Positions 4,909 to 61,351 are shown, counted from the stretch's first letter. The stretch is DNA of 64,000 bases from Candidatus Omnitrophota bacterium (GCA_021731625.1 JAKFXC010000058.1:815-64814), one strand, 5' to 3'. The notes: generated by a model not told the origin, from the sequence alone. Numbers and translations are program-made.

Positions 4909-4997
4909 AGCAGCCCAGCCGGTTGTCCAAACTGGTAAAACAGCCCGCGTTGTTGTAGACTTCCTACATGCCCCCAGACTTAAACTTAAAATGTGTT

Positions 4998-7900
4998 ATG
5001 TTTTGTGCGCTGGTTTGCTTTGGGGCTATGCCGTGCCTGCCCGCCCCTTTCGTGGTGGCTCAGGAAATGGTCGCGCTGCCGGCCCCCGGGACCAGGGTAC
5101 ATTTAAGCCCCGCGTTTGCGCCGCCGGTGCTTAAGGGAATCAAAATCCATCCGGATAATCCTTTCCGCATTGAGTTTGTGTTGTCCCAGGGGGACGCTGT
5201 GTTCCCGGAAGTAGATGCACTTAACATGGAACTCAAAAGGGAATCCACCAAGCTCATCAAATATTTTCTTGCTGCGCTGACCATTCCCGAAAAAGACTTG
5301 TGGGTCAATTTGTCCCCCTATGAACAAGACCGTATTGTGCCGGAATTTTTTGGCCAGACCGAAATGGGTCGGGATTTATTGACCCAGGATTATATGCTTA
5401 AACAGATCACCGCCAGTTTGATTTATCCTGAAGATGAGATCGGCAAACAATTTTGGAAACGTGTGTATGAAGAAGCTGGTAAAGAGTTCGGCACCACAAA
5501 TATTCCGGTCAACACGTTTAACAAAATGTGGATTGTTCCGGAACAGGCAGTCGTATACGAAAATGCCAAGTCGGGATCGGCATATGTGGTCAGATCAAAG
5601 TTGAAAGTCATGCTGGAGGCGGATTACTTGGCCCTGAATAAAAATGGCAGCGGCGCCGTGCCTCCGAAGGATGTCAATTCTTTGGCATCAAAAATCGTGC
5701 GCGAAATTGTCCTTCCCCAGTTGACCAAGGAGGTGAATGAAGGCAGGAATTTTGCCATGTTGCGCCAGATATTTCATTCATTGATATTGGCAACCTGGTA
5801 TAAGAAAAAAATCAAGGAAAGTGTCTTAACTCAGGTGTACAGCGACCAGCAGAAAATAGCCGGCGTTGACACTGATGATCCGTCGGAGAAAGAACAAATA
5901 TACCAAGGGTATCTGCAATCCTTCAAAAAAGGCGTTTACAATTACATCAAAGAAGAACAAGACCCTTTCAATCATCAAAGCGTTTCCAGAAAATATTTTT
6001 CCGGAGGAATGCAGATGGCGACGCCGTTGACAGTGACAAATGATCTTGCACATGAAGACAGAAACCCGGTTTTTGCCGGAGAGAAAAGATTTTTGGTGAG
6101 GTCAGATTTGGCAATGGCCGCCAAAGCCGCGACGTCAGAGAAATCCGAGCGATCAGATCTGCAAGAAAGGATAAGACGATTCAGCCTGGAGGTGGAGAGT
6201 TACGGTTCCGGCATGATGGACCCTTATAGCGTGTTAGGACGACGGTATAGCCTTACCCGTTACCAAATTGTGGAAATTCTCAAGGAATACGGGTATGAAA
6301 GAAATCATCTCATCGCTGTGGCGGCTATACAAAAGCAAAAAAAAGCCGAGAAAAGAAAACAGCAAAGGCTAAAGGCCCGCGCGCTTCGGATCAAAGAGGC
6401 CGTGTATGCCGCTGTGGACCGCATTGAGGGTTTTTCCGAGGCCAGGCGGAAAAATAAATACGAACTGATGGCCCAATTGTTTAGAAAGCATATTAAAAAA
6501 TTTAGAGGAGGAGCAAGTGCGTTCTTTTATAAAAATGGCAGGGTGACTGGGCTTGATAAAACGGGCAGCCCGTATGCCCTTATGAAATTCGTTTTCCCCC
6601 AATGTTTCGATGACCATAATCCCAAGCTTCTAAGTTTAGCGGACTTCCCGGTCAAAATCCATTTTACAAAAACCATGGCCAAGGCGGTTATTTTAGATGC
6701 GCTGGATCAAATCGATGGATTTGCACAGGCCAGAGCGGACGGGAATGTCCGGGTCATGAAAGAAAAATACCTTGAACATGTGAGAGGTTTTAGAAGGAAA
6801 GTCCGCGGTGGGTTCATTGAGGGTGACCTCGCTTATTTTAAACAATTCCCATTGGTGCGCAGAGTGATGAATAAAAAGCGGCGGTATTTAACGAGAAGAG
6901 ACAGTCCGTTGGCCCTATTGAAATTCGCACTACCCGCATTGGTTAATGACAAAAACCCGGACGCATTGAAATTGGCGGATTTCCGGTATTTGCATTTAAC
7001 AAAAAGGAAGGCCGTAAAACTGATTAATGACGGGTTGTCCACTATCAGAGGGTTTCAACTGGCCAAGGTAAAGGGCGATATCAAGAAGATGCGAGAACTG
7101 TACATCGAACACGTCATCGGGTATTTAGAGATCATCGATGGAAGGGTAGAGAGCGGCCAGCAGGCGTTCTTTTTTCGATTTCCGGCCATAAAGCGGTTGG
7201 TGTTTGAGAAACATGCTTTCCTGGGGAATGCGCACAGCATTGTGGCCTTGGTGAAACTCGCCGTGCCGCAGTTATTTGATCCCAAAAATCAGGAGGCGCT
7301 GACGGTGGCAGATCTATACCATCGGAAGCATTCTCCTGTATCCAGGTTGAGGATAACCATCAGAAGCGAATTTTATAAAATTTGGGGATTCCGCGAAGCC
7401 CAAAAACAGGGCGATGCCAGAAAAATGAAAGAACTGTTTTTTACTCATATTAAAGGGTATGCGAGGAGACAGAAGGAAACAGTGGTGGGCGGAACTCTGG
7501 CTTTTTTTGACCAATTTCCGGAGGCCCGAAAGTTGATATCGCCAACGGCGGCTGACTCAGCAAATCAATTCGCCTGCTGGGTCCTGGCAGGGCTTCCTTT
7601 TCCGGAATTAACAGATAAAAAAAATCCGCACGCTTTGCGTCTTGGAGATTTTGATGGCCAGTTTATTGTTTACAAATTTTCGGAAGTGCGTCAGGCCATG
7701 CTAAAGGCCCTTTACACAATCAAAGGGTTTGATTCGGCGAGGCATCTTGCTAAAGTTGAGAGGATGCAATCATTATATCAAAGGCACGTGCACAACTTTG
7801 AATCGTACAGCGGGGTCCGAGGTGAAAGGGCATTTTTCCGGCAAGTCCCGTTGTTAAAGAAAATAATTCCCTTAGAGAATTCACGATTGAAAGGGAAAAT

Positions 7901-8183
7901 AGAGTTGAAAGATTTACTCATGATGGTTGCGCCGCAAGTGGTTACGAGAATGGGGGACAGCGCCCAAATGGGCGGTATCGATTTGCAAGCAGACAAAGTA
8001 AACCTTGAACTGCAGAACTCCGGTCAGACAATTCAATTTAAAACCGACCCGGCCATGCTTAAGCAGCTCCAAAACGCCCCCGGTTTTGTGCCGGTCATTA
8101 TTGATGTCCAGCCCATGACTGATCTTAGACTTTTCCTCGGCTTGACAGACGAAAAGTCTTCCATAAAAGCGGCCGCTTCGTAA
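4998..8183 (+). CDS. giant exported repeat protein, paralog A of a family sharing N- and C-terminal modules with 48509..54967
   Basis: Signal-peptide-like MFCALVCFGAMPCLPAPFVVAQE. An N-terminal ~300-aa domain (KYFLAALTIPEKDLWVNLSPYE, LKQITASLIYPE, NEGRNFAMLRQIFHSLILATWYKK, RKYFSGG) is shared with the 2165-aa protein. There are five tandem ~112-aa repeats. The C-terminal module is GGIDLQADKVNL...NAPGFVPVIIDVQPMTDLRLFLG. Confidence 0.6.
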   Translation: MFCALVCFGAMPCLPAPFVVAQEMVALPAPGTRVHLSPAFAPPVLKGIKIHPDNPFRIEFVLSQGDAVFPEVDALNMELKRESTKLIKYFLAALTIPEKDLWVNLSPYEQDRIVPEFFGQTEMGRDLLTQDYMLKQITASLIYPEDEIGKQFWKRVYEEAGKEFGTTNIPVNTFNKMWIVPEQAVVYENAKSGSAYVVRSKLKVMLEADYLALNKNGSGAVPPKDVNSLASKIVREIVLPQLTKEVNEGRNFAMLRQIFHSLILATWYKKKIKESVLTQVYSDQQKIAGVDTDDPSEKEQIYQGYLQSFKKGVYNYIKEEQDPFNHQSVSRKYFSGGMQMATPLTVTNDLAHEDRNPVFAGEKRFLVRSDLAMAAKAATSEKSERSDLQERIRRFSLEVESYGSGMMDPYSVLGRRYSLTRYQIVEILKEYGYERNHLIAVAAIQKQKKAEKRKQQRLKARALRIKEAVYAAVDRIEGFSEARRKNKYELMAQLFRKHIKKFRGGASAFFYKNGRVTGLDKTGSPYALMKFVFPQCFDDHNPKLLSLADFPVKIHFTKTMAKAVILDALDQIDGFAQARADGNVRVMKEKYLEHVRGFRRKVRGGFIEGDLAYFKQFPLVRRVMNKKRRYLTRRDSPLALLKFALPALVNDKNPDALKLADFRYLHLTKRKAVKLINDGLSTIRGFQLAKVKGDIKKMRELYIEHVIGYLEIIDGRVESGQQAFFFRFPAIKRLVFEKHAFLGNAHSIVALVKLAVPQLFDPKNQEALTVADLYHRKHSPVSRLRITIRSEFYKIWGFREAQKQGDARKMKELFFTHIKGYARRQKETVVGGTLAFFDQFPEARKLISPTAADSANQFACWVLAGLPFPELTDKKNPHALRLGDFDGQFIVYKFSEVRQAMLKALYTIKGFDSARHLAKVERMQSLYQRHVHNFESYSGVRGERAFFRQVPLLKKIIPLENSRLKGKIELKDLLMMVAPQVVTRMGDSAQMGGIDLQADKVNLELQNSGQTIQFKTDPAMLKQLQNAPGFVPVIIDVQPMTDLRLFLGLTDEKSSIKAAAS
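6427..7960 (+). repeat. five tandem ~336-nt (about 112-aa) coding repeats inside the 1061-aa protein, each starting GF(S/A/Q/R/D)
   Basis: Each unit reads GFxxA..., then (L/M)Y/F..H(V/I)(R/K)GF, AFF..FP, LxKxxxPxLxDxKNPxALxLADF. Boundaries are approximate. Confidence 0.55.
7968..8183 (+). repeat. dispersed ~180-nt C-terminal-module repeat, copy 1 (about 80% nt identity to copy 2 over the conserved core)
   Basis: caaaacgcccccggttttgtgccggtcattattgat... compared with caaaacgcccccggctttgtgccggtcatcattaat... Confidence 0.6.
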
Positions 8184-16443: not shown

Positions 16444-16491
16444 CCCTTTGAGTGTAGGGCAGGTTAACGTGGCATCAAAAAGGGAGTATAG
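16437..16491 (+). promoter_or_regulatory. perfect 13-nt inverted repeat whose right arm contains the tpsB ribosome-binding site
   Basis: CTATACTCCCTTT, then a 29-nt loop, then AAAGGGAGTATAG; the tpsB ATG is at 16493. Confidence 0.5.
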
Positions 16492-16492
16492 A

Positions 16493-47360: not shown

Positions 47361-47664
47361 CGCGGGGTGGAGCAGCCCGGTAGCTCGCTAGGCTCAATAT
47401 GGGCGACCGATTGAGAAATCAATCGGCAGATGACCTGTCAAATTCGGGGGAGCCCGCAAAGGTAATCCCGAGCCAAGTCCGCCGAAGTTCCGATTTATCG
47501 GAACGAAGGTGGAAAGGTGTAGAGACTAGATGGCAGGTACCCGACCTGAAAAGGTGGGTAAAGGTATAGTCCAGACCACAAATCTCGTCGGAAAATGAGA
47601 GCGGCGAAAGCCGTAGCTGGTACGCATAACCTAGAGGTCGCAGGTTCAAATCCTGTCCCCGCAA
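47361..47664 (+). tRNA. initiator tRNA-fMet(CAU) interrupted by a group I intron (exons 47361..47394 and 47625..47664)
   Basis: The spliced sequence CGCGGGGTGGAGCAGCCCGGTAGCTCGCTAGGCT|CATAACCTAGAGGTCGCAGGTTCAAATCCTGTCCCCGCAACC is near-identical to E. coli tRNA-fMet, including the C1xA72 mismatch. Confidence 0.85.
47395..47624 (+). ncRNA. group I self-splicing intron (230 nt) inserted 5' of the anticodon between U33 and C34
   Basis: The 5' exon ends in U and the intron ends in G. The conserved core segments CCCGAGCCAAGUCCGCCGAAG and GGUGUAGAGACUAGAUGGCAGGUACCC...GGGUAAAGGUAUAGUCCAG resemble the cyanobacterial tRNA and Tetrahymena group I cores (GCCAAGUCC; AGACUA). Confidence 0.8.
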
Positions 47665-47876
47665 CCCGTGCAGATTAGGACGTTGTCCGAAAGGATAGCG
47701 TCCTTTTCTGTTTACTGGGTATTTAGTGTTTTAAATTTGACTTTATAAAATAAATATGCAAAATAATTAAAGAAGCATTTCTCTCGTTCCACTCCCGCCG
47801 CTTCTACTCCGTGTCTTTCTTTGTAAATCCTTTTGATGCGACATAACCTTGATAGTATCGTGATTGATTTTTTGGA

Positions 47877-48338
47877 ATGGATACAAAACTCAAAGCTGAT
47901 ATAGCTGAATCAGCAGTAACTACTGAACTATTAAGCAGAGGGTTTAATGTTCTTAAGCCCATTGGTGATCGACTATGTTACGATCTAGCTATTGACATAA
48001 AAGGAAAATTAACGCGTATTCAAGTTAAACATGCTTGGTTCAATTATCGAGATAAAGCATATTTGGTAGATGTTAGAAGAACAAATACTAATAGACGACG
48101 GATGCTAAGAAAAAGATATTGCAATGAAGATTTTGAATTTGCAATTATTTATTTAGACGCCAAGGTTTATTATGTCATGCCCGCATGTATTTTTAATTCT
48201 TTTGGCAGCAACATTTCTTTTGTGGAAGATTCAAAAAGACAAAGACTTCCAAAATCTGTCAATTATCGCGAAAGATGGGATTTATTGAGTGAGTCAGTTT
48301 TTAATGTTACGGAAGGACCATGCCGCACACATGGATAA
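47877..48338 (+). CDS. small AT-rich ORF with a PD-(D/E)xK nuclease-like motif
   Basis: E...D(x)n...CYDLAIDIKGKLTRIQVKH (D..DxK..Q.K pattern). GC content is visibly much lower than the surrounding genes. Immediately downstream of the tRNA. Confidence 0.35.
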   Translation: MDTKLKADIAESAVTTELLSRGFNVLKPIGDRLCYDLAIDIKGKLTRIQVKHAWFNYRDKAYLVDVRRTNTNRRRMLRKRYCNEDFEFAIIYLDAKVYYVMPACIFNSFGSNISFVEDSKRQRLPKSVNYRERWDLLSESVFNVTEGPCRTHG

Positions 48339-48508
48339 CAGTTTGTACCGGAGACGTGGGTGACACAATCTCCGGTGCGATGAACGAGGCCGCCCAGACC
48401 CAGCCAAATGGCGGGGTCTTCTAAGAGCCGCACATAGCCCCACATAGCCTTGAATAGCATCTAAATATAGTGCATACTCTATACTGTATCCGTAAACTCA
48501 TCACACGT

Positions 48509-51500
48509 ATGCGCACTGACTTTAAAAGCCTCCTTTTTTCCAGAACCCTATGCCTTGGATTATGCCTTTTAATAGCCATAGGCCAAGGGCCGGTCTATGC
48601 CCAGACTTTGTTTATCAACAGTCTGCCTCCCCCGGGGGACATGCTATCTTTGTCAGCAGACTTTACGCCTGTGGTACTTAGAGGTGTGGTGGTTCATCCT
48701 GACAAACCGTTGAATTTTGATTTCGTTATCGACGCGGGTAATCATACGACTGATCCAAAGATTCTCAGGACCGAAGGCGAGCGCATGGTTAAGTATTTTT
48801 TGGCGGCGTTAACCGTACCCTCCAAGGATTTATGGGTCAACTTATCACCTTATGAGCATGAGCGCATTATTTCTAAGGAGCTTGGTGACACTGAGCTTGG
48901 TCGAGACATGTTGGCGCAGGATTATGTGCTTAAGCAGCTGACCGCCTCGCTTATTTATCCTGAGAGAGGTTTGGGTAAGAAGTTTTGGGACAAGGTATAT
49001 GATCAGGCAAGAACAAGGTATGGCGTCACCAATATTCCCATGCAAACATTTAACAAAGTTTGGATTACTCCAGCCTCCGCTGAGATCTATGAAAAAGATA
49101 ATACGGTCTATGTGACTAAGGCAAGGCTCAAGGTCAAGTTGGATGAGGATTTCCGGTCGTTGACAAGAAATAAAATAAACACAACAGGAGCTCACGCTTT
49201 AACTCCCCAAGTCTTAAGACAAGTTATCATTCCCGCTCTTGAAAAAGAAGTCAACGAGGGAAAGAATTTCGCCTCGTTGCGTCAGATTTACCATGCCACT
49301 ATTTTGGCCAAATGGTATCGTCAAGCCATCACAAAATCCCTGCTTTCTCGTTTTTATATCGACAAGAATAAGATCAAGGGCATTGACCTCGATGATAAGA
49401 CGATCAAGGAGCAAATTTACGAACGTTATATAAGGGCTTATAAAAAAGGGGTCTTTAATTATATTAAAGAAACTCCCATGCCCAATGGCCAACTGGCACC
49501 AAGAAAATATTTTTCAGGCGGAATCTCTCAACTTGATCAAATTCCATTTGATCATGCACAAACAGTGGAGATTCCTACTCAACCTCATTTTGTTATGAAT
49601 GTGGAATTAGATGCACCTGCCATTGCAAACCCAGCCATGACCCCCGATCTTAATTTTGCTATGACTTCTTTTTGGGATGATTTCGCATTGGATCGACCCG
49701 TCGACTCGTTGGTCCAGGGAATTCTTTATATGGAGAGTCGGCTGATACCCGGTCCTCATTATGAAATGGAGTGGGGAATGCGGCAAAGGATCATCGACGC
49801 ACTTGGTATTTTGAATCAAAGGCTGAAAAAGAAAGGAGGGAAGAGAACAGTAGATTTTTTGAAGGCCCTTCTTCGGGAAAATAGTCCCGTTTATGAGAAG
49901 AACCCCGATGTCCAAGAAACGATCGGCCGTGTATTGGTGTTTCTCGACCAAGAGGCGGGAAAGCAAGTAACTGAGGACCATCGTTTATTGAAGGAGGCTC
50001 TGCAGATCATTTACCCTAACCTGCCCAAGAAGAGTATAGATCAGATCTACGGCAATCTAGAACGCGAGGACAGTCAGGTTTCAGAGAACGATATGAAGAT
50101 ATATACTCTCTTTAAAAATCGGAAATCGGATTTGCTTTTACGTAATCAATTTGTTTTGGACAGAATTTTTTCTTTACCTGGTGAGGAATTGGAAAACTTA
50201 ATCAAAAATTTTAAGGAGATTGACAGTCTGTTTGCGCACAGCGGTCTTGTGGATCCTTTGGGAGAGTATGTGCAGCTGGCGTATTTAATGGAAATGATTT
50301 TGCCTGATGTTGCGGTCAACTATCTGAAAGGTTTATATTTCAAAAATGGTGGAATAAAGGTTGTGATGAGATTTTTGGACAGCAAGAGGTCCTTTTTGCT
50401 CAATGATGGAGCATGGATGGAACTTAGAAAGCTGCTGAGAAAGATGAAAGAACTTAACGGTAAAAGCCGAACCTATAAGCTGGATACGAATTTCTATAAA
50501 ATGTTGAATTTAGCTTCTGCATTTTTGGACCTGGGAGGACCGGAAAAATTAAGCGCTGCTTTAGAATCGGTTGTCCCTTCAAAGAATCAAATAGACGTAG
50601 CTAAACAAATGGAAAGTATACTGCTCAAACAAATGGCTGAATTTTTGAACATCACATCAATTTCTATAAAACCGAATATCCAGGAAAAACTCTACATGCC
50701 ATATTTGTCGAGGATCCGGGTTGCCCTAAAGTATATAAAGGATGAAAAACCTTGGAAGCTCGACAGATTTAAGGCTTTGATTAGAGCCACGTTAGAAGAT
50801 CGCTTTTGGAATTTTATTGAAGACGAGAGTCAATCTGATGAAGAAGGAGCAGAGATTGCCCAGCATAACAAAGGCGTCCGGAAGGCTTTAGCGAAGGTGG
50901 GTATCAATGTGGACCGTTGGCTGGGCAAACAATTGGAGTCCAGGTTACCGGAGGAGAGGTTTACCTTTGGCCAGAATTCATTTATCATCCGGCCTATATT
51001 CCGCAGACCTGGTTATGATGTCTTTCTAGGGGATTTTACAAATTGTTCGGTAGGTATGAGTTCCAATCAGTATCCGGACGGGATGATGGAAAGGCTCATC
51101 GATGAGGGACTCAATACAATTGAAGTTATTGATGAAAGCACACAGAAACCTACGGCTGCAGCTTGGTTATTTGTTGCCGAGGATGGGAGTGTTGTCATTC
51201 AAAATTTGGAAGCCAATACCAATTATGAAAGTGATCCATCGTTAAAGAATTATCTAGGTGAGCAAATGGTGGCTTATACGATGAAATTCGCGAATCATGT
51301 AGGTACGAACCTCCTCCTAATAGGAGATGCGGTACACGGAAAATACTGGGAACAACGTGGGAAAGCCGGGTTTGTCATTGACCATTACGGCAAGAACAAA
51401 GTTAAGTTTGGCTTGGAGAAAATAGGCGGCTATCTTGGAGAGAAATATTACCTTACATCAGCCGGAGAGGAATATGCTTATCTCGTTACTGATTTTGCCA

Positions 51501-54500
51501 TGTACGTTGAGAAAGTTTCAGCCATGCAGGCCGTATCAAAAGCTGCCAGTCCAGCTATGGTAGTTTTCGAAGGCGCTCAGAAAATCACCCCTGAGGAAAT
51601 GGAGGGAGACAGCAAGATTTTAAGCACTTATCTGAAAAAAGAGAACATGGGAGATGTTGACGAAGCTATGAAGTCCAAGGAAACTCAATTGACCCAAATT
51701 ATCAGGGAAAACATTACTGGCAATGTCTCTATCACTTTAAACGAATTGGCTGTAGAGGCGGGGTTTGACGACCCTGCTAATAAAACTTTTCAACGGGTTC
51801 TTCTCAAATACCTTCAAACGATACCTAAAACTATTCTTCATGAACATGTTTCCGGCGTTATTTTCCCGGAAGATTTAATTAGATACTTTTTGGATGATGA
51901 ACCCTCCAAAGAAGAATTTACTGCTGATGAACGTCAAAACAGATTGGAAGCCCGCCGTGAAGCCAGACGGCGATTTGTTTTAACCGTTGATTCCCGCAGA
52001 AGCGGGATCGATTTGCAAGCCAACCCAGTGAATCCCAATAATAGTCAAGAAGAAGCAGACCGTGCTTTTCGAGAGATTTTGGAACTGCCCCAGAAAGTTC
52101 CACTAACTTTAAACGACATTAATTTGCCTAATACCGTTAAAAAACTGAAAATTTTTGTAACCTATAAAGATAAAAATGTCGATTGGAATAACTTTGAACG
52201 CGCTTTTGCTGTTATTAAAACTGTAACAGATGCGCACCCAAGATTTCGCTATGAACTCTTAAGAGAAGGTGTATTGCGGCATTTTAATCAAGACAATGTC
52301 CGTAATCTTGAATTAACCGATTTTCATAGCCAGTCGCTGGGAGAGCTCTTGAAAGAATTGGTTTCCATTGAACAGCAGCTTCATGGGGCAATGACATTGT
52401 CGGTTTTGAAAGCTTTTCGGAAAGATTATTTGGAACGGGTTTTAAAGCAGGCTGAAAAAAATGAGGACTATAGACAAGAAGTGTTTAAGCGGTATCAGGG
52501 GCAGTCATTGGATGAGGTTAAAGAAAGCATTTTCAGAGAAACTTTAAAAATGGACCAACAGTATTTTAAATTGGATCGGGAGAAAATAAAAAAAGAATTC
52601 GAGGAGGCCATCGAGCAGATCAAAGAGAATCTTAACATAGAAAAGAAGGAACAAGTCACTTTAGAAGATTTACGCAATCGGCTTATATTTGCCCTTGAGG
52701 CCCGTAAGTTAGCTTTGAAAGAAGCCAAAGATTTCGAGACAGATCTTAATCGACTAGAACTTAACGAGCCGCTCTTGCGTAAGCGTATCGGCGGTATCAG
52801 CAGCATCGGAAATGAAACAGGCTATATCAATTGGGTCGGCTCTCCTATTTTGCGTAACGCCCGCCGGATTGGGTTAAAGATTTCTTCCCATATGGGAGAA
52901 GTTTGGGAACCGAGCCAGTATGTGACGTCTTTAAAACGCATTAAATATGAAATTGAAAATGGGGTTAACCGACTCGCTCACGTGACGGTATTAGGATTGG
53001 ACTATGGACCATCAACGCGCATCCCAATATCTGAACCGGAGCGAATCGACGCTCAAAAACTTCAGGAAGAAATATTTAGTCTCCTGCTGCGGAATAATAT
53101 TCATATTGAACTTCAGCCAACCAGTCAAATCATTACCTCTGCCGATTTTAACGATTACAAAGGTCACATCATTAGGAAATTTTTTAAAATGAACAAAAAT
53201 GGCAGTGGTCTAAGTTTTTCTATTAATCCTGATGACAGCAGCATCTTCGATACCTCTTCCTCGCAAGAAGAACTTGCTGTTTGGCTCGCCAACCCGGAAC
53301 TTCCCTATTCAGTTCTGAGTCAAACGTTTCTTATGGCTAATGATGCCAGATTTTATGAGTCACCCCGCCGGGTCAAAAGACGATTGAGGAATGAACGGCG
53401 AAAGGTTTGGGCAGCGATCAAAGGTTTTAATAAACCCATTCAACGTCCCGCTATCGTAGTCATTGGGAGCGCGCGTATCCCTGATGGCGGTCCACAAGAA
53501 GAGACAGGACGAGAAATTGGGAAATTGGCTTGGGAAAATAGTACAGCGATCAAAACCGGAGGCGGTCCGGCAGCTATGAAGTGGCCTTTGGAAGAGTTCA
53601 TTAAGTCTAGAGAAGACCGTTTCAGAGCCCTGCGCAAACGAGGCTTATCTATACCTGACAACGTTCCAGTTCAGTCCATTAATGTGTTGGTGAATACGTT
53701 CGAACCCGAAAATAAATCTCTGGAACAAAATTATATGTTTCGCCATTTTGTATTCCGGAAATTAGGGCTACATTTAAACGCGCTAGGGCTTATCGGCATT
53801 CATGGCGGTCTAGGAACATGGGATGAAATTTTTGAAGGCTGGCGGCGTCGACGGGAAATATCGTTGATCGGAGAAAGTTACTATAAGCCTATTCTTGATG
53901 TGTTAAAAGATCGCTGGGAATTTGCGGGATTACTAGATCGTGTGGACTACTGGCCATTTGTGACTAACAGCAGCGAGGAAGCCTTTTATCACATCCTTGA
54001 CCATGCCGATAAACACAGAGTCATAATTCCAACTCAGAAACAAACAATGGCAGTCATCAAAGAAATGGAAAACGGCATCGACAAATTATCCGCGCTACCA
54101 CGGGCGGTCGTTATTCTGGGAAAGCCGGAAGATAATGCGTATGGACGGACGGTTCTTAATCAACTCAATGGTATTATTTCTCCGATTTTTAAGATGAAGG
54201 TTCCTGTCCGTATTGCTAGCCGTGGAATTATTTTGGGATCGGTTCTTAAGCAGGCACAGCAGCTTCGAGCGGAGTCGGTTTTGCAAGCTGTTCTGTATAA
54301 GAAAGAGGAAGTCGAGGGGCTTGTCCCAAGCGAACAGTATGTCAAACAGCATTTACCAGGGCAAACCCTATTTCTCGAAGATGATTCTAATCACCAGCTG
54401 CTGCTGACGTATGATGCGCGTGGTTATATTGTTTTGCCTGGGGTAGTTGGAATATTCAATAAACTTTTTGATATTGTGGTGGCCATGCAAACCGGCAGTA

Positions 54501-54967
54501 TACGCCGTAAACCAATTATTTTGGTGGGGCGTGAATTTTGGGAACCGATTTTAAAAATTTTGAAACAAACAATGGAGAATTATGACCCACCTTTAGTGTC
54601 TAAAGGCGATTTTGAATTGATGACAATTATTGATACACCTCAAGAGGCCACTGAAGAATTGGCCTTAAACGGCATTGGTGAAAGGACCGATGCCGCGATG
54701 ATGGGGACAGGAAACCGGGCCATGAACGACACCATCCATACAGGCCGAAAGCAAGACTTTGGCGGTATTGATCTTCAGGCGGACAAAATAAATCTGCACC
54801 GCCAAAATGATGGGCAAGAAATCAACGTTCATGCTGACCCAGCCATGATCGAGCAATTTCAAAACGCCCCCGGCTTTGTGCCGGTCATCATTAATATTCG
54901 CCCCCTGACAGATATTCGTATGTTCCTTGGCATCAATAAAGATCAGACCCACCCTAAAACAGGGTAA
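48509..54967 (+). CDS. giant exported multi-domain protein, paralog B (2152 aa from M14): shared N-domain, adenosine/AMP-deaminase-like domain, two LOG-like domains, shared C-terminal module
   Basis: Signal peptide MRTDFKSLLFSRTLCLGLCLLIAIGQGPVYA. The N-domain is homologous to 4998..8183. ADA-like motifs with correct spacings: LHEHVSG (HxH), SSHMGE (HxGE), RLAHV, ITSADF. LOG-like 1: VVIGSARI...TGGGPAAM...LIGIHGGLGTWDEI. LOG-like 2: LPGVVGIFNKLFD...KPIILVG.EFWEPI. C-terminus GGIDLQADKINL...NAPGFVPVIINIRPLTDIRMFLG. Confidence 0.6.
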   Translation: MRTDFKSLLFSRTLCLGLCLLIAIGQGPVYAQTLFINSLPPPGDMLSLSADFTPVVLRGVVVHPDKPLNFDFVIDAGNHTTDPKILRTEGERMVKYFLAALTVPSKDLWVNLSPYEHERIISKELGDTELGRDMLAQDYVLKQLTASLIYPERGLGKKFWDKVYDQARTRYGVTNIPMQTFNKVWITPASAEIYEKDNTVYVTKARLKVKLDEDFRSLTRNKINTTGAHALTPQVLRQVIIPALEKEVNEGKNFASLRQIYHATILAKWYRQAITKSLLSRFYIDKNKIKGIDLDDKTIKEQIYERYIRAYKKGVFNYIKETPMPNGQLAPRKYFSGGISQLDQIPFDHAQTVEIPTQPHFVMNVELDAPAIANPAMTPDLNFAMTSFWDDFALDRPVDSLVQGILYMESRLIPGPHYEMEWGMRQRIIDALGILNQRLKKKGGKRTVDFLKALLRENSPVYEKNPDVQETIGRVLVFLDQEAGKQVTEDHRLLKEALQIIYPNLPKKSIDQIYGNLEREDSQVSENDMKIYTLFKNRKSDLLLRNQFVLDRIFSLPGEELENLIKNFKEIDSLFAHSGLVDPLGEYVQLAYLMEMILPDVAVNYLKGLYFKNGGIKVVMRFLDSKRSFLLNDGAWMELRKLLRKMKELNGKSRTYKLDTNFYKMLNLASAFLDLGGPEKLSAALESVVPSKNQIDVAKQMESILLKQMAEFLNITSISIKPNIQEKLYMPYLSRIRVALKYIKDEKPWKLDRFKALIRATLEDRFWNFIEDESQSDEEGAEIAQHNKGVRKALAKVGINVDRWLGKQLESRLPEERFTFGQNSFIIRPIFRRPGYDVFLGDFTNCSVGMSSNQYPDGMMERLIDEGLNTIEVIDESTQKPTAAAWLFVAEDGSVVIQNLEANTNYESDPSLKNYLGEQMVAYTMKFANHVGTNLLLIGDAVHGKYWEQRGKAGFVIDHYGKNKVKFGLEKIGGYLGEKYYLTSAGEEYAYLVTDFAMYVEKVSAMQAVSKAASPAMVVFEGAQKITPEEMEGDSKILSTYLKKENMGDVDEAMKSKETQLTQIIRENITGNVSITLNELAVEAGFDDPANKTFQRVLLKYLQTIPKTILHEHVSGVIFPEDLIRYFLDDEPSKEEFTADERQNRLEARREARRRFVLTVDSRRSGIDLQANPVNPNNSQEEADRAFREILELPQKVPLTLNDINLPNTVKKLKIFVTYKDKNVDWNNFERAFAVIKTVTDAHPRFRYELLREGVLRHFNQDNVRNLELTDFHSQSLGELLKELVSIEQQLHGAMTLSVLKAFRKDYLERVLKQAEKNEDYRQEVFKRYQGQSLDEVKESIFRETLKMDQQYFKLDREKIKKEFEEAIEQIKENLNIEKKEQVTLEDLRNRLIFALEARKLALKEAKDFETDLNRLELNEPLLRKRIGGISSIGNETGYINWVGSPILRNARRIGLKISSHMGEVWEPSQYVTSLKRIKYEIENGVNRLAHVTVLGLDYGPSTRIPISEPERIDAQKLQEEIFSLLLRNNIHIELQPTSQIITSADFNDYKGHIIRKFFKMNKNGSGLSFSINPDDSSIFDTSSSQEELAVWLANPELPYSVLSQTFLMANDARFYESPRRVKRRLRNERRKVWAAIKGFNKPIQRPAIVVIGSARIPDGGPQEETGREIGKLAWENSTAIKTGGGPAAMKWPLEEFIKSREDRFRALRKRGLSIPDNVPVQSINVLVNTFEPENKSLEQNYMFRHFVFRKLGLHLNALGLIGIHGGLGTWDEIFEGWRRRREISLIGESYYKPILDVLKDRWEFAGLLDRVDYWPFVTNSSEEAFYHILDHADKHRVIIPTQKQTMAVIKEMENGIDKLSALPRAVVILGKPEDNAYGRTVLNQLNGIISPIFKMKVPVRIASRGIILGSVLKQAQQLRAESVLQAVLYKKEEVEGLVPSEQYVKQHLPGQTLFLEDDSNHQLLLTYDARGYIVLPGVVGIFNKLFDIVVAMQTGSIRRKPIILVGREFWEPILKILKQTMENYDPPLVSKGDFELMTIIDTPQEATEELALNGIGERTDAAMMGTGNRAMNDTIHTGRKQDFGGIDLQADKINLHRQNDGQEINVHADPAMIEQFQNAPGFVPVIINIRPLTDIRMFLGINKDQTHPKTG
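54758..54967 (+). repeat. dispersed C-terminal-module repeat, copy 2
   Basis: About 80% nt identity to 7968..8183 over the core. Confidence 0.6.
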
Positions 54968-55214
54968 AGTTAGCGGCAAGTCCTGGCCCTTCTTACCGTA
55001 AGTCCTTTAAATTCAATAGGCATCAAAGTCGCCCGGTAGGTCGCAAGGATCATATTCCCTGGCTGACATTGCTTTGAGGCATGTTCTTACTCGTAGTAAG
55101 AAAGTAACGAGGTAAGGAATGGCAGAAGGTACAGAAATTAGCTTCGGCTAGCAGCCCTCGCAGGGTCGGATTTTGCTATAACAAAATCCGGGAACACAGA
55201 TTCTTAAATTAAAT

Positions 55215-55248
55215 ACGGGCAGTCCTTAAGTGGGCTGCCCGTTTTTTT
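55215..55248 (+). terminator. rho-independent terminator downstream of the 2152-aa gene
   Basis: ACGGGCAG, loop tccttaagtggg, CTGCCCG, then TTTTTTT. Confidence 0.6.
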
Positions 55249-55353
55249 GTGTAAAAGAATTGCTTAAAAGGTTGAATCCAGTTTCAAACGATACTAGGAT
55301 GATTATAGTTCAAAGTCTTTAATAGAATATTTTAATTTCTTTTGGAGAAAACA

Positions 55354-58300
55354 ATGTTCAAATTTCTTCTTATTGTATTATTCTGGGTGGTCAATTTTTC
55401 GAATGTTAATACTTATGCCCAGAGTACCACGTCACCGCTTGCCATTGAGGAGCAAGAAGTTAAAAAGATCAATAATGAATTGATCAATGACCGAAAAGTA
55501 TATAAGAGGAACCCTAGAAATAAGGACCATAAAAAACGCATGGAGCGTAAGTTGCACAAACGAAGAGAAAAGATTCTAAGACTCATGCAAGAGAATCCCG
55601 ATTTACTTAAGAGAATTGCTATGAGTGATCAAGAATCAGCGGATTTGCCCCCGGATTTTCAAAATTTGGTTGAGCGTCGTGTCAAAGAAGAAGGCGCTAT
55701 GGAAGTGATTGTTGAGGATCGCAATGACGGGGCAGTTGTGCATCAGTTTTTAAGGACCCGCAAAGGCCGGAAATTTAAAATGTTTTTGCCTAAAAATATG
55801 AAGTCAAAATTTCTTTCAGGGACCAAGGTGCGTTTTGAAGCCTATCAATTGGATGATCATATGGCCTATAGTGGAAGTCCTGATCAATCGGTTCAAGTTC
55901 TATCAACTCCAGATTCAAAAGTGTTGGGAGAGCAACGGTTATTGGTTGTTATGGCTAATTTTATAGATGGAGGTCCTCAAGGTTGGCAACCGGATGTGGT
56001 CAACAATATCGTTTTTAACGAAGTTAATAATTTTTTTAAAGAAGTATCTTATAATAAAATATGGTTAACTGGTGAGACTAAAGGTTGGATAACATTGCCG
56101 ATGACCTATGAACAAGGTAAATGTCGATTGACAAGTGATGGAAGGGTAGATGAAAATTATAATCGCACAATCCGGAACAAAATTATTAATGAAATTATTC
56201 GAATCATAGATCCCCAGGTGAATTTTCATGATTTTTCACGTATTTTAATAATTTATCCGTATGAAGCTTATGTTTGTGGTTATGCGGGGATTTCCTCATT
56301 AGGTAAAGCTGATCTTGAAACAGCAGATGGTTGGGTCAAGGCTTCTTTGGCTATTGTGTTGACGCAAGCGCCATCGACATCTCTGATTGCACATGAGTTA
56401 GGGCATAGTTTTGGGGTAATGCATGCAAATAACTTAGAATGTGATAATGTCAGTATTGGCACAAGCCCGCCTTGTTATAACATTGAATATGGAGATACCG
56501 GGGATATCATGGGTAGATCAGGTATTTTTCACTTTAATGCAGCGCATAAGGATACATTAGGTTGGTTTTCTCCTTCAAATTTAGCATTGTTTGATACGGT
56601 TGGGACAAATCATTACACGATTAAACCTATAGAAATACCCACCAATGAGCTTCAAGCTTTAAAAATATTACGAGGGCAAGGTTCTCACTTTTATATAGAA
56701 AATCGAAAACCTATTGGTTTTGATATGACCAATAGATTAAATGGTGCTGCTATACATATGGCCTCAGATGTTGTTTTAGGCTCGCATTTATTAGATATGA
56801 CCCCAAAATCTCAAGGGAGTCTGGAAGATTTAAATGATGCTGTATTAAATGTTGGAAAAGTTTTTTATGATCCGGTGGGTCAAATTACGATGGAAACCTT
56901 AAGTGACACATTCCAAGATCTTCAAGTTCAAGTTAAGGTAGATCCTGACACTAATCCGCCGCAAGTTGCTATTGACACGGAAAATACAAAAAGAATGGAC
57001 TATGACCTAAATGCCGTGCAAGTACAAGTTAATTTTTTTGAAAACAGGGGTTTAAAACAAATCGAATTATTTATTGATGATCAATTGTATCAAACCTCAA
57101 CGAATTTTAGTCCTACTAGTGATCAAGTTTCAGAAAGGTTTTATTGGCAAACAACTCAATATAACGAAGGCCCGCATCGATTGGTTGCAAAAGCAACAGA
57201 TTTAGTAGGCAATCAAGCCGTGTCAGCACCAATGATTTTTCAACTTAGTAAAGCCAATACGAATCATGATCCAATAGTACGGGTGTCGGGAAATACAACG
57301 GCGTCCGTTGGCCAGTGGATTTCATTGTTTGCCATCCCAGAAGATGCTGATGTTAACGATTTTCCTTTTGTATCGTATGAGATATCCAAAGAAGGAATTC
57401 AACCATCCACGAATTTAGGTGATGAAATATTTTATTCATTATTAGGGGATGTTGATGCCAGCCAGTTATTGGACAATCGGGATGAAGAGTTTCTAGCCAA
57501 ACATTTAAGTAATCCAGTACAATTTCCTTTGACGGAAAAGCAAAAAATATTAGCAGATGTTACCCAAGATGGGTTCATTAATCAAGCTGATTTGGATTTA
57601 ATCCATAAACTTAGTACATATGAAATTATACAAGATGTTCATGTTTTTTTAGCTAAATTAAATCGGACAGGATACTACAAGGTGAATTTCATTGTATCAG
57701 ATAGAAAAAGCTTTGTTTCTAAATTGGTGGATCTTGAAATTACCAATTCATCGGGTGTTTCTACCAATACGCCTCCGGAATTTCAACCAATCGGTGCCCA
57801 ACACGTTCAAGTAGGATCGACATTAACATTTCCTTTGTTGGCAACAGATAGAGATAATGATGCCTTGTTTTATGCGTTGGAAACACCGGTGCCCAATGGA
57901 GCTCTTCTAAACGGGAATATTTTTGCTTGGACCCCGCGTCCTGAGCAAGCGCTTGCTCCTACCAATGTTTATTCTTTGGTGTTTAAAGTGACAGATCAAA
58001 AATCTTCACCCGTTTCGCAACAAATAACCATTACTGTCAACCAGATACCAAATATTCCCAAAAAATCAACTAAAACAACGTTGGCCCTGTTGTCCAATAT
58101 AAATGTGACAGCTGGAGACCCGATAGACATTGTTGCGATCGTTGGTGAAGGCCAAAACCCAACAGGCCATGTTGATTTTTATGAATCAAGTGTTGCCATT
58201 CCTTCTTGTGTTGGCTTGAGATTAAGGGCAGAATCTATTGCCTGCCATCTGCATTCGTTAAATACCGGCGATTATTTTATAACAGCCCAATATTTGGGTG

Positions 58301-61197
58301 ATCCGTTGAATGAAAATTCAACAAGTCAGGTGTTAGGAATTAAAGTAGAGAAAAAACAGAGTCAAACAAACTTGACATTATCCCCGCCGAGTGGCAATGA
58401 GTTAGGCCAATTGATCACTTTGGAAGCCACAGTCACAGGATTTTTACCATCAGGAACAGTTAGTTTTACTGATCAAGACAATTTTATCACCAACTGTGCT
58501 GCGTTGATACTCAATGGCCAAGGAAAAGTTCAATGCCAGACCAGTACCCTTGGGGTGGGGAATCACGTGATACGGGCTCGATACAACGGGGATTCAAACA
58601 ATACCGAGAGTATAACCTCCGAGCCAATCAATCTGCAGATCAATGCTAAACCCCAAGTAGCAGCCCCAAGTTTTAGCGTGCCAGAGGGAGTATATAATAG
58701 TGAGCAACTTGTTTATTTAAGTACCACAACAATGGGTGCAGAAATCCGCTATACATTAGACGGCAGCTTGCCGACTTCTAGTTACAGTCTGTATCATGGC
58801 ACAGCAATTAATGTGGCCACACAGGCAACCATTAAAGCTGTAGCATTCAAAGATGGCATGGTTGATAGTCTCGTTGCGGTGGCGAATTATACAATCCAAA
58901 TACCTCCACCACCGATCGTAGACCCGCCAATTGTTTTGCCTCCAGTTAATAGATCAATGCCCATGGCGTTTTGGTTGCTGGATGGGAATGGTTATGATGC
59001 GGTGGGTGACAATCATCTAACTTTGGCTGGAACAACGTTTGTCACAGACACAGAGCGTCAACAAGTTTATAGCCTAAACGGCAGCACGGACAAAGCAATA
59101 TCGTATCTGACGGGCCCGTCAGAGAAACTCACCATTGCCACATGGTTTAAACAGACAGCTAGTAGTCCACAGCAGGTGATTTTACAAGGAGGGAACCAAT
59201 ACAACCATGATTTTTATTACCGCTTACAAGTAGTACTTAATCAAGCAAGAAAAGTGCATTATTTGAGTGGAGGGGTAGGCAGCGGTAATGGTCAAGGTTT
59301 TGCCTGGGATGAAAACATTATTTATAAAGAAGGGTGTCCAGTATCTTTGAATGTTTGGCATTTGGGTGTACTGACCCATGATAATGCAACGCATGAGACT
59401 ATTTTGTATCTTGATGGTAATCAATGCTTCAAGGAAAAAAGCAAAAAAGATTTAGCGCCAGCACCAGGATTGACGGTTGGCGCTTTTACAAATCCTGGAT
59501 TTAACTTTTCTGGATTGTTGGATGATGTGCGCATTTATAATAGAGTGCTAAGCCCTGAAGAAATCATCATGTTATATCATTCAACGACACGCCCAGTAAA
59601 CAAAATGAGTACAACGACAACGGTTGTTAGCCATTTCAATCCAGCTACTATTGGTAGCAGCATCACATTTCTGGCGACTGTTGGTAATAATACGAATAAT
59701 GTTCCAACCGGAACTGTGACCTTCTTGGACAACGGGCAGATTATAAATGCTTGTGCTCTTGTGCCTCAAGCTAATGGCATAGCCAGTTGTACAAGTACAA
59801 TCAGTGGATTAGAAGAAATGAACCATATCATTACTGCAAGTTACGGTGGAGATGGCAACAATAGCTCTTCCGTAAGCGCGCCTATGACACAAACAGTAAC
59901 CCCTAACGTTCAAGAGAATCTAACCGCCATTTTATACGGTAGCTCAGAGTGGACGCTTGCCAAGGACCGCGTGGGCCAACAACAAGCAACAGCCATACCA
60001 GATAATGTACGCGACATTCATATTCGATTAAATAATGTGCCAAAGGCGATACAAAAAATAACCATCAAATCCCTAGGTGATGTGGGGGTGTGGGAGTGGC
60101 CGTTCAATGGCCAAAATTGGTATATCGTACGCGAACCCAACAATGGCCCTGGACAAGTAGATCTGTATTTTGATTATTGGAAGGACGTAAACACGTATAC
60201 GATTGATTTGATTTATGATGATGGAAGCTCGAAATCCGTGACCACGGTTCCAGGAATACCAGATCAGGATATAATTCCACCTAACCTGCAAGTAGCAACA
60301 CCAACTTTTAATGTCTCCGAGGGGACATATGATAGTCCACAAAGTGTTTATTTAAATACAACAACAGCGGGGGCAGAAATCCGCTATACATTAGACGGTA
60401 GTTTGCCGACTTCTAGTTCTAATCTTTATAGTGGTGCTGTAATTCAAGTGACGACAAACACAACGATCAAAGCTTTTGCGTTTAAAAATGGTATGACCGA
60501 TAGCCCTATAGCAAGTGCAACGTATACAATCAACATGCCACCAATCAATACACCGCCAGCTGGACTTAAGCTTTGGCTTAAATTTGATGAGGGCACCGGT
60601 ACAACTGTTTCGGATACATCAGGATTGTTGGGTCAACCCGTACGTCATTTTTCCTTTAGTGGAAGCCCAAGATGGGAAGCGGGAAGAATAGGAGCTTATT
60701 CAGGATTCTTTAATGGAACAAATTATCTTAGTTCTAGTGGAGTGAACCTTGGGACCTTTGCTAATTCGTTTGATAATACACAAACAGCTTGGGTTTATCC
60801 CATAAAGCCAGGAAATTCATGCGCCATTTCTTATAACTGTGACGCCATTTTTGGAGATCAACCAGGAACAGGGTATTGGGCCCTTAGTTATGATAACAAG
60901 AATTTTGTGGTTTATAATTGGGATGGCGATGAAGATCAATGCCGGGGCAAGACAGCGTATAACCTCAACGCATGGTATCATGTGGCCAGGGTGCATACGG
61001 GTGGGAAAATTTATTTATATGTTAACGGCAAGGAAGAATGCTCTGTGGCAACAGGAAGTACGCAAAAGATAACGGGAGAGTTTCGTATAGGAAATGGCTA
61101 TTATGGCAGGGGCTTTAAGGGTCGGATCGACGACGCTCGGGTGTACGACCGCGGTTTAAATGCCGATGAGATTAGTAAAATTTTTAATAGTCACTAG
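55354..61197 (+). CDS. giant secreted metzincin-type zinc metallopeptidase with Ig-like, CHB_HEX_C-like and two LamG-like (concanavalin-A-type) domains
   Basis: Signal peptide MFKFLLIVLFWVVNFSNVNTYAQ. HELGHSFGVMH matches HEXXHXXGXXH. Two GAEIRYTLDGSLPTSS...IKA(V/F)AFK(D/N)GM units. LamG signatures LDDVRIYNRVLSPEEI and IDDARVYDRGLNADEI. AT-rich. The track ORF begins at a TTG at 55342. Confidence 0.65.
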   Translation: MFKFLLIVLFWVVNFSNVNTYAQSTTSPLAIEEQEVKKINNELINDRKVYKRNPRNKDHKKRMERKLHKRREKILRLMQENPDLLKRIAMSDQESADLPPDFQNLVERRVKEEGAMEVIVEDRNDGAVVHQFLRTRKGRKFKMFLPKNMKSKFLSGTKVRFEAYQLDDHMAYSGSPDQSVQVLSTPDSKVLGEQRLLVVMANFIDGGPQGWQPDVVNNIVFNEVNNFFKEVSYNKIWLTGETKGWITLPMTYEQGKCRLTSDGRVDENYNRTIRNKIINEIIRIIDPQVNFHDFSRILIIYPYEAYVCGYAGISSLGKADLETADGWVKASLAIVLTQAPSTSLIAHELGHSFGVMHANNLECDNVSIGTSPPCYNIEYGDTGDIMGRSGIFHFNAAHKDTLGWFSPSNLALFDTVGTNHYTIKPIEIPTNELQALKILRGQGSHFYIENRKPIGFDMTNRLNGAAIHMASDVVLGSHLLDMTPKSQGSLEDLNDAVLNVGKVFYDPVGQITMETLSDTFQDLQVQVKVDPDTNPPQVAIDTENTKRMDYDLNAVQVQVNFFENRGLKQIELFIDDQLYQTSTNFSPTSDQVSERFYWQTTQYNEGPHRLVAKATDLVGNQAVSAPMIFQLSKANTNHDPIVRVSGNTTASVGQWISLFAIPEDADVNDFPFVSYEISKEGIQPSTNLGDEIFYSLLGDVDASQLLDNRDEEFLAKHLSNPVQFPLTEKQKILADVTQDGFINQADLDLIHKLSTYEIIQDVHVFLAKLNRTGYYKVNFIVSDRKSFVSKLVDLEITNSSGVSTNTPPEFQPIGAQHVQVGSTLTFPLLATDRDNDALFYALETPVPNGALLNGNIFAWTPRPEQALAPTNVYSLVFKVTDQKSSPVSQQITITVNQIPNIPKKSTKTTLALLSNINVTAGDPIDIVAIVGEGQNPTGHVDFYESSVAIPSCVGLRLRAESIACHLHSLNTGDYFITAQYLGDPLNENSTSQVLGIKVEKKQSQTNLTLSPPSGNELGQLITLEATVTGFLPSGTVSFTDQDNFITNCAALILNGQGKVQCQTSTLGVGNHVIRARYNGDSNNTESITSEPINLQINAKPQVAAPSFSVPEGVYNSEQLVYLSTTTMGAEIRYTLDGSLPTSSYSLYHGTAINVATQATIKAVAFKDGMVDSLVAVANYTIQIPPPPIVDPPIVLPPVNRSMPMAFWLLDGNGYDAVGDNHLTLAGTTFVTDTERQQVYSLNGSTDKAISYLTGPSEKLTIATWFKQTASSPQQVILQGGNQYNHDFYYRLQVVLNQARKVHYLSGGVGSGNGQGFAWDENIIYKEGCPVSLNVWHLGVLTHDNATHETILYLDGNQCFKEKSKKDLAPAPGLTVGAFTNPGFNFSGLLDDVRIYNRVLSPEEIIMLYHSTTRPVNKMSTTTTVVSHFNPATIGSSITFLATVGNNTNNVPTGTVTFLDNGQIINACALVPQANGIASCTSTISGLEEMNHIITASYGGDGNNSSSVSAPMTQTVTPNVQENLTAILYGSSEWTLAKDRVGQQQATAIPDNVRDIHIRLNNVPKAIQKITIKSLGDVGVWEWPFNGQNWYIVREPNNGPGQVDLYFDYWKDVNTYTIDLIYDDGSSKSVTTVPGIPDQDIIPPNLQVATPTFNVSEGTYDSPQSVYLNTTTAGAEIRYTLDGSLPTSSSNLYSGAVIQVTTNTTIKAFAFKNGMTDSPIASATYTINMPPINTPPAGLKLWLKFDEGTGTTVSDTSGLLGQPVRHFSFSGSPRWEAGRIGAYSGFFNGTNYLSSSGVNLGTFANSFDNTQTAWVYPIKPGNSCAISYNCDAIFGDQPGTGYWALSYDNKNFVVYNWDGDEDQCRGKTAYNLNAWYHVARVHTGGKIYLYVNGKEECSVATGSTQKITGEFRIGNGYYGRGFKGRIDDARVYDRGLNADEISKIFNSH

Positions 61198-61216
61198 AAT
61201 AATTACGGCTGACAGA

Positions 61217-61351
61217 ATGAATATCGAAACCCGAATGGATTCTCGCTTGCGTGGCATTAACGGTAAGGGTATTAAATTTAAACTCGACCCAGCCATGGTT
61301 GAGCAATTGCAAAAGCCGACCGATATCCAGATGTTCCTTGGTATTTTATAG
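61217..61351 (+). pseudogene. degenerate orphan copy of the shared C-terminal module (remnant, different frame from the upstream gene)
   Basis: ...RGINGKGIKFKLDPAMVEQLQKPTDIQMFLGIL compared with the paralog C-termini ...DPAMIEQFQNAPGFVPVIINIRPLTDIRMFLGI. Nucleotide-level similarity with an internal deletion. Overlaps the lexA 3' end. Confidence 0.4.

Follow-up and report, generated by a model that had tools for sequence, protein, structure and literature searches.

The window analysed here is a stretch of 64,000 nucleotides from a Candidatus Omnitrophota bacterium (GCA_021731625.1 JAKFXC010000058.1:815-64814). At positions 48509..54967 (+) the open reading frame (ORF) list and translation place a complete gene, stop codon included, for a 2152-aa protein (the target) that is predicted to be exported and in which an adenosine/AMP-deaminase-family domain is followed by two LOG-type domains. 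We read this protein as an exported AMP-catabolic cargo of the surface or effector machinery of predatory or episymbiotic Omnitrophota, with a probability of about 0.5; what the protein does and where it acts are, in this reading, predictions. The three enzyme-like domains form a unit that recurs in other, mostly giant, proteins, and the two ends of the target belong to a family of Omnitrophota proteins with variable internal cargo.

The deaminase-LOG-LOG cassette

The cassette spans about 1000 aa of the target and contains the following features:

51761..53431 (+), adenosine/AMP-deaminase-family (beta/alpha)8 domain, aa 1085-1641; catalytic set H1111, H1113, H1461, E1464, H1491, D1575 and D1576
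52508..52765 (+), insert of three long helices, aa 1334-1419, between barrel strands 3 and 4; model helices 265-284, 288-310 and 316-350, pLDDT ~90
53441..54013 (+), LOG1, type-II LOG-like domain, aa 1645-1835; GSAR 1653, TGGGPAAM 1683-1690, FRK 1749-1751 and HGGLGTWDE 1765-1773
54092..54664 (+), LOG2, pseudo-LOG domain, aa 1862-2052; PGVVGIFNK in place of PGGxGTxxE, and SRG in place of the GGG loop

The first-pass annotation of this gene had proposed an adenosine deaminase (ADA)-like region with its motifs in the canonical order. Three of these motifs were placed correctly, namely LHEHVSG (1110), which supplies the HxH zinc ligands, SSHMGE (1459) and RLAHV (1488). The fourth, ITSADF (1542), was ruled out as the strand-8 Asp motif, as both HMMER and hhalign put INPDD (1572-1576) at this position, opposite the LNTDD/SINTDD motif of adenosine deaminases.

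When a profile of aa 1425-1636 was used in an exhaustive HMMER search, 99 relatives were identified at E<=1e-3; a word-indexed homologue search with the deaminase region alone had yielded a single partial orthologue, and the relatives emerged only with the exhaustive method. All nine remote relatives that were checked are Pfam A_deaminase members above the curated cut-off. In the large majority of relatives the columns of H1461, E1464, H1491, D1575 and D1576 read H-E-H-D-D/N, so the loss of histidines among homologues, named in advance as grounds for abandoning the assignment, was not seen in most of them. A deaminase profile built from six cassette proteins matched almost exclusively adenosine/AMP deaminases in the PDB, and its hhalign comparison with a profile of true family members gave a probability of 99.7% (E 9e-26), with IGGISSIGNE paired with GxDxxGxE, SSHMGE with HAGE, RLAH with RIGH, ELQPTSQ with ExCPTSN, and SINPDD with SINTDD. 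The score of the Pfam family model is sub-threshold (see the last section), which is compensated by this transitive and profile-profile support. The hhalign alignment stopped short of the HxH motif, whose assignment is based on a structural model and a weak local HMMER match; HxH is present in all seven cassette copies that cover this region.

The AlphaFold model of aa 1070-2075, made with eight cassette sequences, reached a pLDDT of 86.4 and a pTM of 0.84. Its deaminase part has eight strands with the motif residues at the strand ends, including H1111 and H1113 at the end of strand 1 (model strand 38-44), and this barrel is superimposable on solved adenosine deaminases, a finding that speaks for family membership. 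Structure prediction, one of the checks suggested at first pass, therefore returned an ADA-type barrel as well as LOG folds that superimpose on solved structures. The long coiled-coil insert reported within the ADA-like domain is also real: it forms three helices and is conserved across the cassette homologues (phmmer E 1e-12 to 6e-50), and the hhalign alignment contains no counterpart of it in canonical adenosine deaminases.

Taken together, the deaminase-like domain is regarded as a true, though divergent, representative of the adenosine/AMP deaminase family with an intact predicted catalytic set. It shares only 15-21% identity with ADA1, ADAL/MAPDA and ADA2/ADGF, and differs from PF00962 members by the ~85-aa insert between strands 3 and 4 and by extra helices after strand 1. 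Unlike those members, the deaminase of the target type is never free-standing, and is always fused to two LOG domains in very large exported or giant proteins.

Of the Pfam models suggested at first pass, A_deaminase stayed below its cut-off, whereas LOG (Lysine_decarbox, PF03641) matched above threshold in two stretches (E 1.3e-18), the best of them, 1926-2050, lying in LOG2. LOG1 has sequence matches in the PDB and a Foldseek TM of 0.85 to the type-II LOG 5wq3, and the neighbours of the LOG part are nucleotide nucleosidases (PpnN, YgdH, type-II LOG). As the first-pass annotation had stated, LOG1 keeps the GGGxxxM and PGGxGTxxE-type signatures, as TGGGPAAM and as HGGLGTWDE, in which the first Pro is replaced by His; GGxGTxxE is preserved in 10/10 cassette copies. 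LOG1 thus retains the signature of a nucleotide 5'-monophosphate N-glycosidase, looks active and is predicted to be so. The description of LOG2 as degenerate was equally accurate. The Gly, Thr and Glu of PGGxGTxxE have all been changed, and K, R or L stands in for the catalytic Glu in 9/9 cassette copies, so LOG2, which keeps the LOG fold, is predicted to be an inactive, constitutive pseudo-LOG. It probably serves as a structural or regulatory partner of LOG1. LOG enzymes are dimers, and the LOG1-LOG2 tandem would therefore form an intramolecular pseudo-dimer. In comparison with type-II LOG and PpnN (YgdH), one intact and one catalytically dead copy are here combined in a single chain and fused to a deaminase, and export is predicted instead of a cytoplasmic location.

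The same unit is repeated in at least 12 further proteins, mostly Omnitrophota-type giants of 2.7-7.8 kaa. In P0121-P0126, P0129, P0159 and P0196, phmmer searches with the individual blocks recovered the order deaminase-N, helical insert, deaminase-C, LOG1, LOG2, whereas the parts of P0146 are ordered LOG-LOG-deaminase. P0121 is a fragment from Omnitrophica named "LOG family protein", and P0122 (2859 aa) carries the cassette together with the N- and C-terminal modules described in the next section. P0123 (6760 aa), P0125 (6608 aa) and P0126 (7836 aa) are much longer. Scanning GTDB by pattern, with one genome for each species, added three loci with a complete cassette, whose ORFs extend past the retrieved DNA. 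Deaminase-LOG-LOG is therefore regarded as a conserved mobile cassette. No deaminase-LOG or deaminase-LOG-pseudo-LOG fusion is described in the literature that was searched; the cassette is a new arrangement of known enzyme families.

The report on Archaeovorins, giant proteins of Omnitrophota (West-Roberts et al. 2023, 10.1101/2023.11.21.568195), lists LOG ("Lysine_decarbox"), NUDIX, PPDK_N, HEAT and methyltransferases among their commonest domains, raises the puzzle of cytoplasm-type enzymes predicted to be extracellular and mentions no deaminase. The target resembles Archaeovorins in its phylum and in a cytoplasm-type domain repertoire that includes LOG, and the identical cassette lies inside 3.6-7.8-kaa proteins of the Archaeovorin kind. 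It differs in size and topology, with 2152 aa and no internal transmembrane helices as opposed to the >10-30 kaa and many transmembrane helices given there for Archaeovorins.

Conservation of the catalytic residues varies between the copies. The deaminase set is complete in the target, P0122-P0124 and P0126, and the fragment P0121, which lacks the HxH region, keeps the remaining five residues. In P0125, P0129, P0159 and P0196 the motifs have been replaced (e.g., by SSYVGG, RLVD or NPGM) and the LOG1 signature is kept. The deaminase has thus turned into a pseudoenzyme more than once, or once within a subclade. As LOG1 is intact everywhere and the deaminase set is sometimes lost, LOG1 is the constant catalytic element of the cassette.

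This pattern bears on the possibility that nucleotide binding, as part of a sensor, regulatory or scaffold module, is the main function of the deaminase-like and LOG domains, with little or no turnover, in the manner of SLOG-type sensors and pseudoenzymes. The invariably dead LOG2 and the persistence of the cassette in the 4/10 copies with a lost deaminase set fit such a role, and the conserved three-helix insert suggests a function in assembly or interaction. However, all seven deaminase residues (or the five covered, in P0121) are kept in the target, P0122-P0124 and P0126 at only 37-64% identity, along with the full LOG1 signature, as would be expected from selection on catalysis, and we consider a purely ligand-binding cassette unlikely.

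A second possibility concerns the substrate. Among the top-ranking structural neighbours of the deaminase part are the N6-methyl-AMP (N6-mAMP) deaminases ADAL (8qch) and MAPDA (6iv5/6ijm), and the LOG matches carry a name of the cytokinin riboside monophosphate hydrolase type; LOG enzymes hydrolyse N6-substituted AMP (cytokinin riboside monophosphates). The cassette could then be specialised for N6-modified adenylates, such as N6-methyl-AMP or isopentenyl-AMP, from RNA and tRNA breakdown, serving either their detoxification or the release of cytokinin-like free bases as signals, but this seems quite improbable to us.

Export signal, family frame and junction motifs

Outside the cassette, the target consists of these parts:

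48509..48601 (+), signal peptide, aa 1-31 (MRTDFK...GQGPVYA, followed by Q); positive n-region, hydrophobic core, c-region VYA before Q
48602..49624 (+), family N-module, aa 32-~372 (LPxPG...LWVNLSPYE...PRKYFSGG), common to essentially all of the top 120 matches
49661..51490 (+), cargo module M, aa 385-994, 610 aa, found only in a few Omnitrophota proteins (P0002-P0004, P0221, P0222)
51491..51670 (+), linker with junction motifs TDFAM 995, SPAM 1014 and DEAM 1051
54758..54943 (+), family C-module, aa 2084-2145 (FGGIDL...DPAM...NAPGFVPVIINIRPL...FLGI), present in 120/120 top matches

The ORF extends from 48470 to 54967 (+), and translation from the ATG at 48509 gives the 2152-aa protein, of which NCBI holds an identical copy (P0001). 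The N-terminus, MRTDFKSLLFSRTLCLGLCLLIAIGQGPVYA followed by QT, has the n/h/c arrangement of a Sec signal peptide, with charged, hydrophobic and small-x-small regions. The sole further hydrophobic stretch lies within the LOG2 fold, and no second strongly hydrophobic, transmembrane-like segment is present in the protein. A hydrophobic core was found in 112/117 family N-termini, with "AQ" directly before the N-module in 92/117. The protein is accordingly predicted to be Sec-exported, with cleavage before Q32. The claim of an exported 2152-aa protein was thus borne out, with export as a prediction, and the view that this is not a standard metabolic enzyme is supported.

Alternatively, the N-terminal segment could be an uncleaved anchor, or be mispredicted, and the protein could carry out purine nucleotide turnover as a membrane-tethered multi-enzyme assembly on the cytoplasmic side of the producer's own membrane. 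The cargo of the family, in which enzymes dependent on ATP, DNA or metabolites of the cytoplasm predominate (hexokinase, PGK, NDK, MutS, SNF2, HTH, receiver), would suit such a metabolon, and the published work on Omnitrophota giant proteins meets the same topology puzzle and doubts some of the localisation predictions. On the other hand, the positive charges before the core and the conserved small-x-small "YAQ" predict an N-in orientation, export and cleavage, and 109/120 family members lack any other strongly hydrophobic segment, so a cytoplasmic metabolon appears improbable.

A search with the full-length protein gave 2963 matches at E<=0.001, in which ~15% of the query (the N-module) was covered at 45-60% identity; this number is an upper bound on family size, since cargo domains may account for some of the matches. 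Where source names were available in the top 120 (about 20 proteins), all were Candidatus Omnitrophica or Omnitrophota. Both the N-module (~340 aa) and the C-module (~62 aa) occur in 120/120 top matches, the latter 0-34 residues from the C-terminus and with the consensus GGIDL..a..LqvqN.G.eIKFh.DPAMLqQLqNAPGFvPVIINIqPm.dl..FLGl. Neither module has a Pfam or NCBIfam match, and the model of the N-module has no match in the PDB. The family-specific terminal modules noted at first pass are therefore real, and a paralogue in the window (4968-8183) has both of them.

The interior is highly variable. In BLAST comparisons with the top 120, the block aa 1-~372 was found in essentially all proteins, aa 384-1008 in three or four, aa 1009-1647 in none, aa 1648-2067 in one (P0005), and aa 2085-2145 in many. 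The M module has no Pfam match and no PDB sequence match, and a word-indexed search with it gave two fragments. It is best conserved in its C-terminal third (aa ~775-1008), with 50-52% identity to P0003 and P0004. According to precomputed Pfam assignments, other family members carry metabolic domains (PEP/pyruvate-binding, hexokinase, PGK, phosphoglucomutase, glucanotransferase, glycosyltransferases, Glu dehydrogenase), nucleotide-handling domains (NDK, NUDIX, cytidine deaminase, phosphoribosyltransferase), DNA, signalling and chaperone domains (MutS, SNF2, DnaJ, HTH, receiver, PP2C), and others (YvcK, methyltransferases, LpxC, HEAT, ankyrin, TPR).

The borders between these parts are marked by a short motif. 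The target contains seven [DN]xAM sites, compared to 0.3 expected, at 374 and 382 (N-module/M border), 995 and 1051 (M/cassette), 2061 and 2069 (cassette/C-module), and 2110 (inside the C-module); six of the seven thus lie at module borders and none within the cassette. Family-wide, the dipeptide AM is observed 720 times compared to 339 expected (twofold). It stands, usually as D-x-A-M, at a median of 21 aa past the FSGG of the N-module and 19 aa ahead of GGIDL, the mean spacing overall being 293 aa. We propose that [DN]xAM motifs are module-boundary signals, and possibly processing sites. The giant cassette carriers without the N/C frame (P0123, P0124, P0126, P0129) have G-A-R-L-A at their junctions instead of the [DN]xAM and N/C-module frame of the target, and G-A-R-L-A may be a second junction signal of giant Omnitrophota-type proteins.

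The N/C-module frame is not described in the literature that was searched, and the passages of the Archaeovorin report on N- and C-terminal parts describe no shared frame of this kind. The N/C-framed family appears to be undescribed in the resources searched, and is a more surprising result than the cassette. By an architectural analogy drawn from general knowledge, it may be likened to MARTX toxins and T9SS cargo, in which conserved ends frame interchangeable enzymes, and the C-module occupies the extreme C-terminus, as a T9SS-type sorting signal would. Unlike these proteins, the target has a Sec signal peptide instead of a T1SS signal and no linked secretion genes, and no sequence or fold relationship to them was found.

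Genomic surroundings

The remaining features of the window that concern the family or the end of the gene are:

4968..8183 (+), paralogue of the N/C-module family, 1071 aa; tblastn identity 47.5% in the N-module and 55% in the C-module
55215..55242 (+), terminator-like hairpin after the gene (11 bp stem, T-run), from a consensus scan
61199..61348 (+), decayed C-module remnant (ending in KFKLDPAMVEQLQKPTDIQMFLGIL and a stop codon) without the NAPGFVPVIINI core; tblastn E 4e-5, just past the stop of a 1951-aa ORF and in a different frame

The window is chromosomal and comes from a diderm organism, as indicated by the markers SecA, BamD/YfiO, Lnt and TpsB. It also encodes serine hydroxymethyltransferase (SHMT), MiaA, HflX, a TpsA/TpsB pair, MurJ, UvrC, YchF, PurN, an FtsH-like protein, enolase, FtsB and LexA. 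The target's neighbours are a tRNA, a PD-(D/E)XK ORF, a secreted protease, LexA, enolase and FtsB. A promoter scan gave no more sites than were found in shuffled sequence. Further family members likewise sit amid housekeeping genes, at times in tandem, as in locus L005 (10001-19073), where a 1510-aa member with tandem-LOG cargo and no deaminase is adjacent to one of 1482 aa and the pair is followed by an ORF with weak similarity to Zeta toxins.

No ORF of at least 37 aa was found between the target and the next large gene, and no immunity-like ORF is adjacent. In contrast to polymorphic toxins, the enzyme cassette lies in the interior of the protein, which ends in a family module, and a Pfam scan found no RHS, TPS or PAAR-type domains in the target. 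The likeness to nucleotide-depleting effectors or toxins suggested at first pass consequently holds in part: the hallmarks of a toxin are missing (no immunity ORF, and a hairpin directly follows), and effector chemistry, as a prediction, is still live.

The other suggestion made at first pass, the adenosine-deaminase logic of anti-phage systems, fared worse. The target could in principle be a nucleotide-depleting immune effector that works like the anti-phage ATP deaminases RADAR RdrB or the type III CRISPR-associated deaminase. PADLOC found no defence family at E<=0.1, however, and the partner ATPase or CARF sensor of those systems is absent; the target has a signal peptide, LOG fusions and housekeeping neighbours in their place. 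A defence function is accordingly regarded as extremely improbable.

The paralogue at 4968-8183 has a DLAM junction 37 aa past FSGG, and its cargo, which contains no Pfam domain, differs from that of the target. About 4 kb downstream of it lies a two-partner secretion pair (12514-18205, +), in which a 1271-aa TpsA-like protein with a TPS domain is followed by a ShlB/FhaC-type TpsB with POTRA.

The GC content drops from ~0.52 to 0.37-0.43 over ~47700-61350, from just after a tRNA-Met gene to LexA. This stretch contains a PD-(D/E)XK_5 endonuclease ORF (47877-48338), the target, the ORF for a 1951-aa secreted protein (55342-61197, +) and the C-module remnant. No integrase and no bounding repeat of the tRNA 3' end were found there, so its interpretation as a genomic island rests on composition only. 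The 1951-aa protein has a signal peptide ending in "TYAQ", an M11/reprolysin-like metalloprotease region, a dockerin-like segment, three Big_3_5 Ig domains, two CHB_HEX_C/Fn3_assoc domains and two LamG domains, and looks like a secreted adhesin-protease. The remnant past its stop suggests a past replacement of, or recombination with, a family member at this site.

The tRNA-Met(CAU) gene, with an initiator-like C1/A72 end, lies at 47361-47664 (+), and its anticodon loop is split by a group I intron (47385-47590; Rfam RF00028, 77.6 bits); the tRNA was not called by ARAGORN. In another member of the Omnitrophota, a 23S rRNA group I intron was reported to accumulate in dead prey cells (PMC13153191).

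Proposed function and its meaning for Omnitrophota

Omnitrophota are ultra-small and host-dependent or predatory (PMC10066038). As the target is predicted to leave the cytoplasm of its producer, the substrate pool is most likely that of an attacked or lysed neighbour. In the proposed scheme, a signal peptide, the ~340-aa N-module, variable cargo and the ~62-aa C-module make up the general layout, the cargo of the target being the 610-aa M module and the ~1000-aa purine-nucleotide cassette, bounded by [DN]xAM. The two predicted active sites would convert AMP-type nucleotides, possibly N6-modified AMP, to hypoxanthine (or adenine), ribose 5-phosphate and ammonia, by deamination followed by N-glycosidic cleavage or in the reverse order. 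The cassette might act inside the attacked cell and deplete its adenylates. Alternatively, it might work in the periplasm or at the zone of contact, where released nucleotides would be turned into importable pieces. Action inside a prey or host cell is put forward tentatively, and periplasmic or surface scavenging is considered only slightly less likely.

Several points weigh against an exported AMP-catabolic cargo. The Pfam A_deaminase model (PF00962) scores 24.1 bits, under its gathering cut-off of 27, and NCBIfam agrees. P0125, P0129, P0159 and P0196 have jointly lost several deaminase catalytic residues and retained the domain, so the domain can outlast its catalytic function. The assignment of the signal peptide is based on sequence features, without a trained predictor, and the gene is not linked to any known device for outer-membrane or cell-to-cell translocation. 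PurN and SHMT are both encoded in the window, which leaves no ground for invoking purine auxotrophy. Little free AMP occurs outside cells, and a purely extracellular role would therefore need lysed prey. Finally, activity is a prediction for every family member.

A broader proposal is that the N- and C-modules constitute an undescribed, Omnitrophota-wide export and delivery frame, by which mosaic enzymes would be processed at [DN]xAM and delivered into or onto host or prey cells. We hold this to be doubtful. If true, up to thousands of Sec-exported mosaics would reprogram or drain host metabolism, with cargo such as the AMP-destroying cassette, kinases, glycolytic enzymes and DNA- or nucleotide-handling domains, and the frame would represent a new kind of effector system.

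Omnitrophota are abundant and uncultured, and their giant proteins are full of "cytoplasmic" enzymes in what is apparently the wrong compartment. The target offers a tractable, mid-sized example of this puzzle, with an export signal, a frame common to up to ~2,900 relatives and sharply testable chemistry. Its activity, if established, would give a first function to a domain combination that recurs in giant proteins, and the role of the N/C frame and the junction motifs in delivery or processing would thereby be put to the test. Together, activity and site of action would tell whether Omnitrophota drain or harvest the nucleotides of their hosts.

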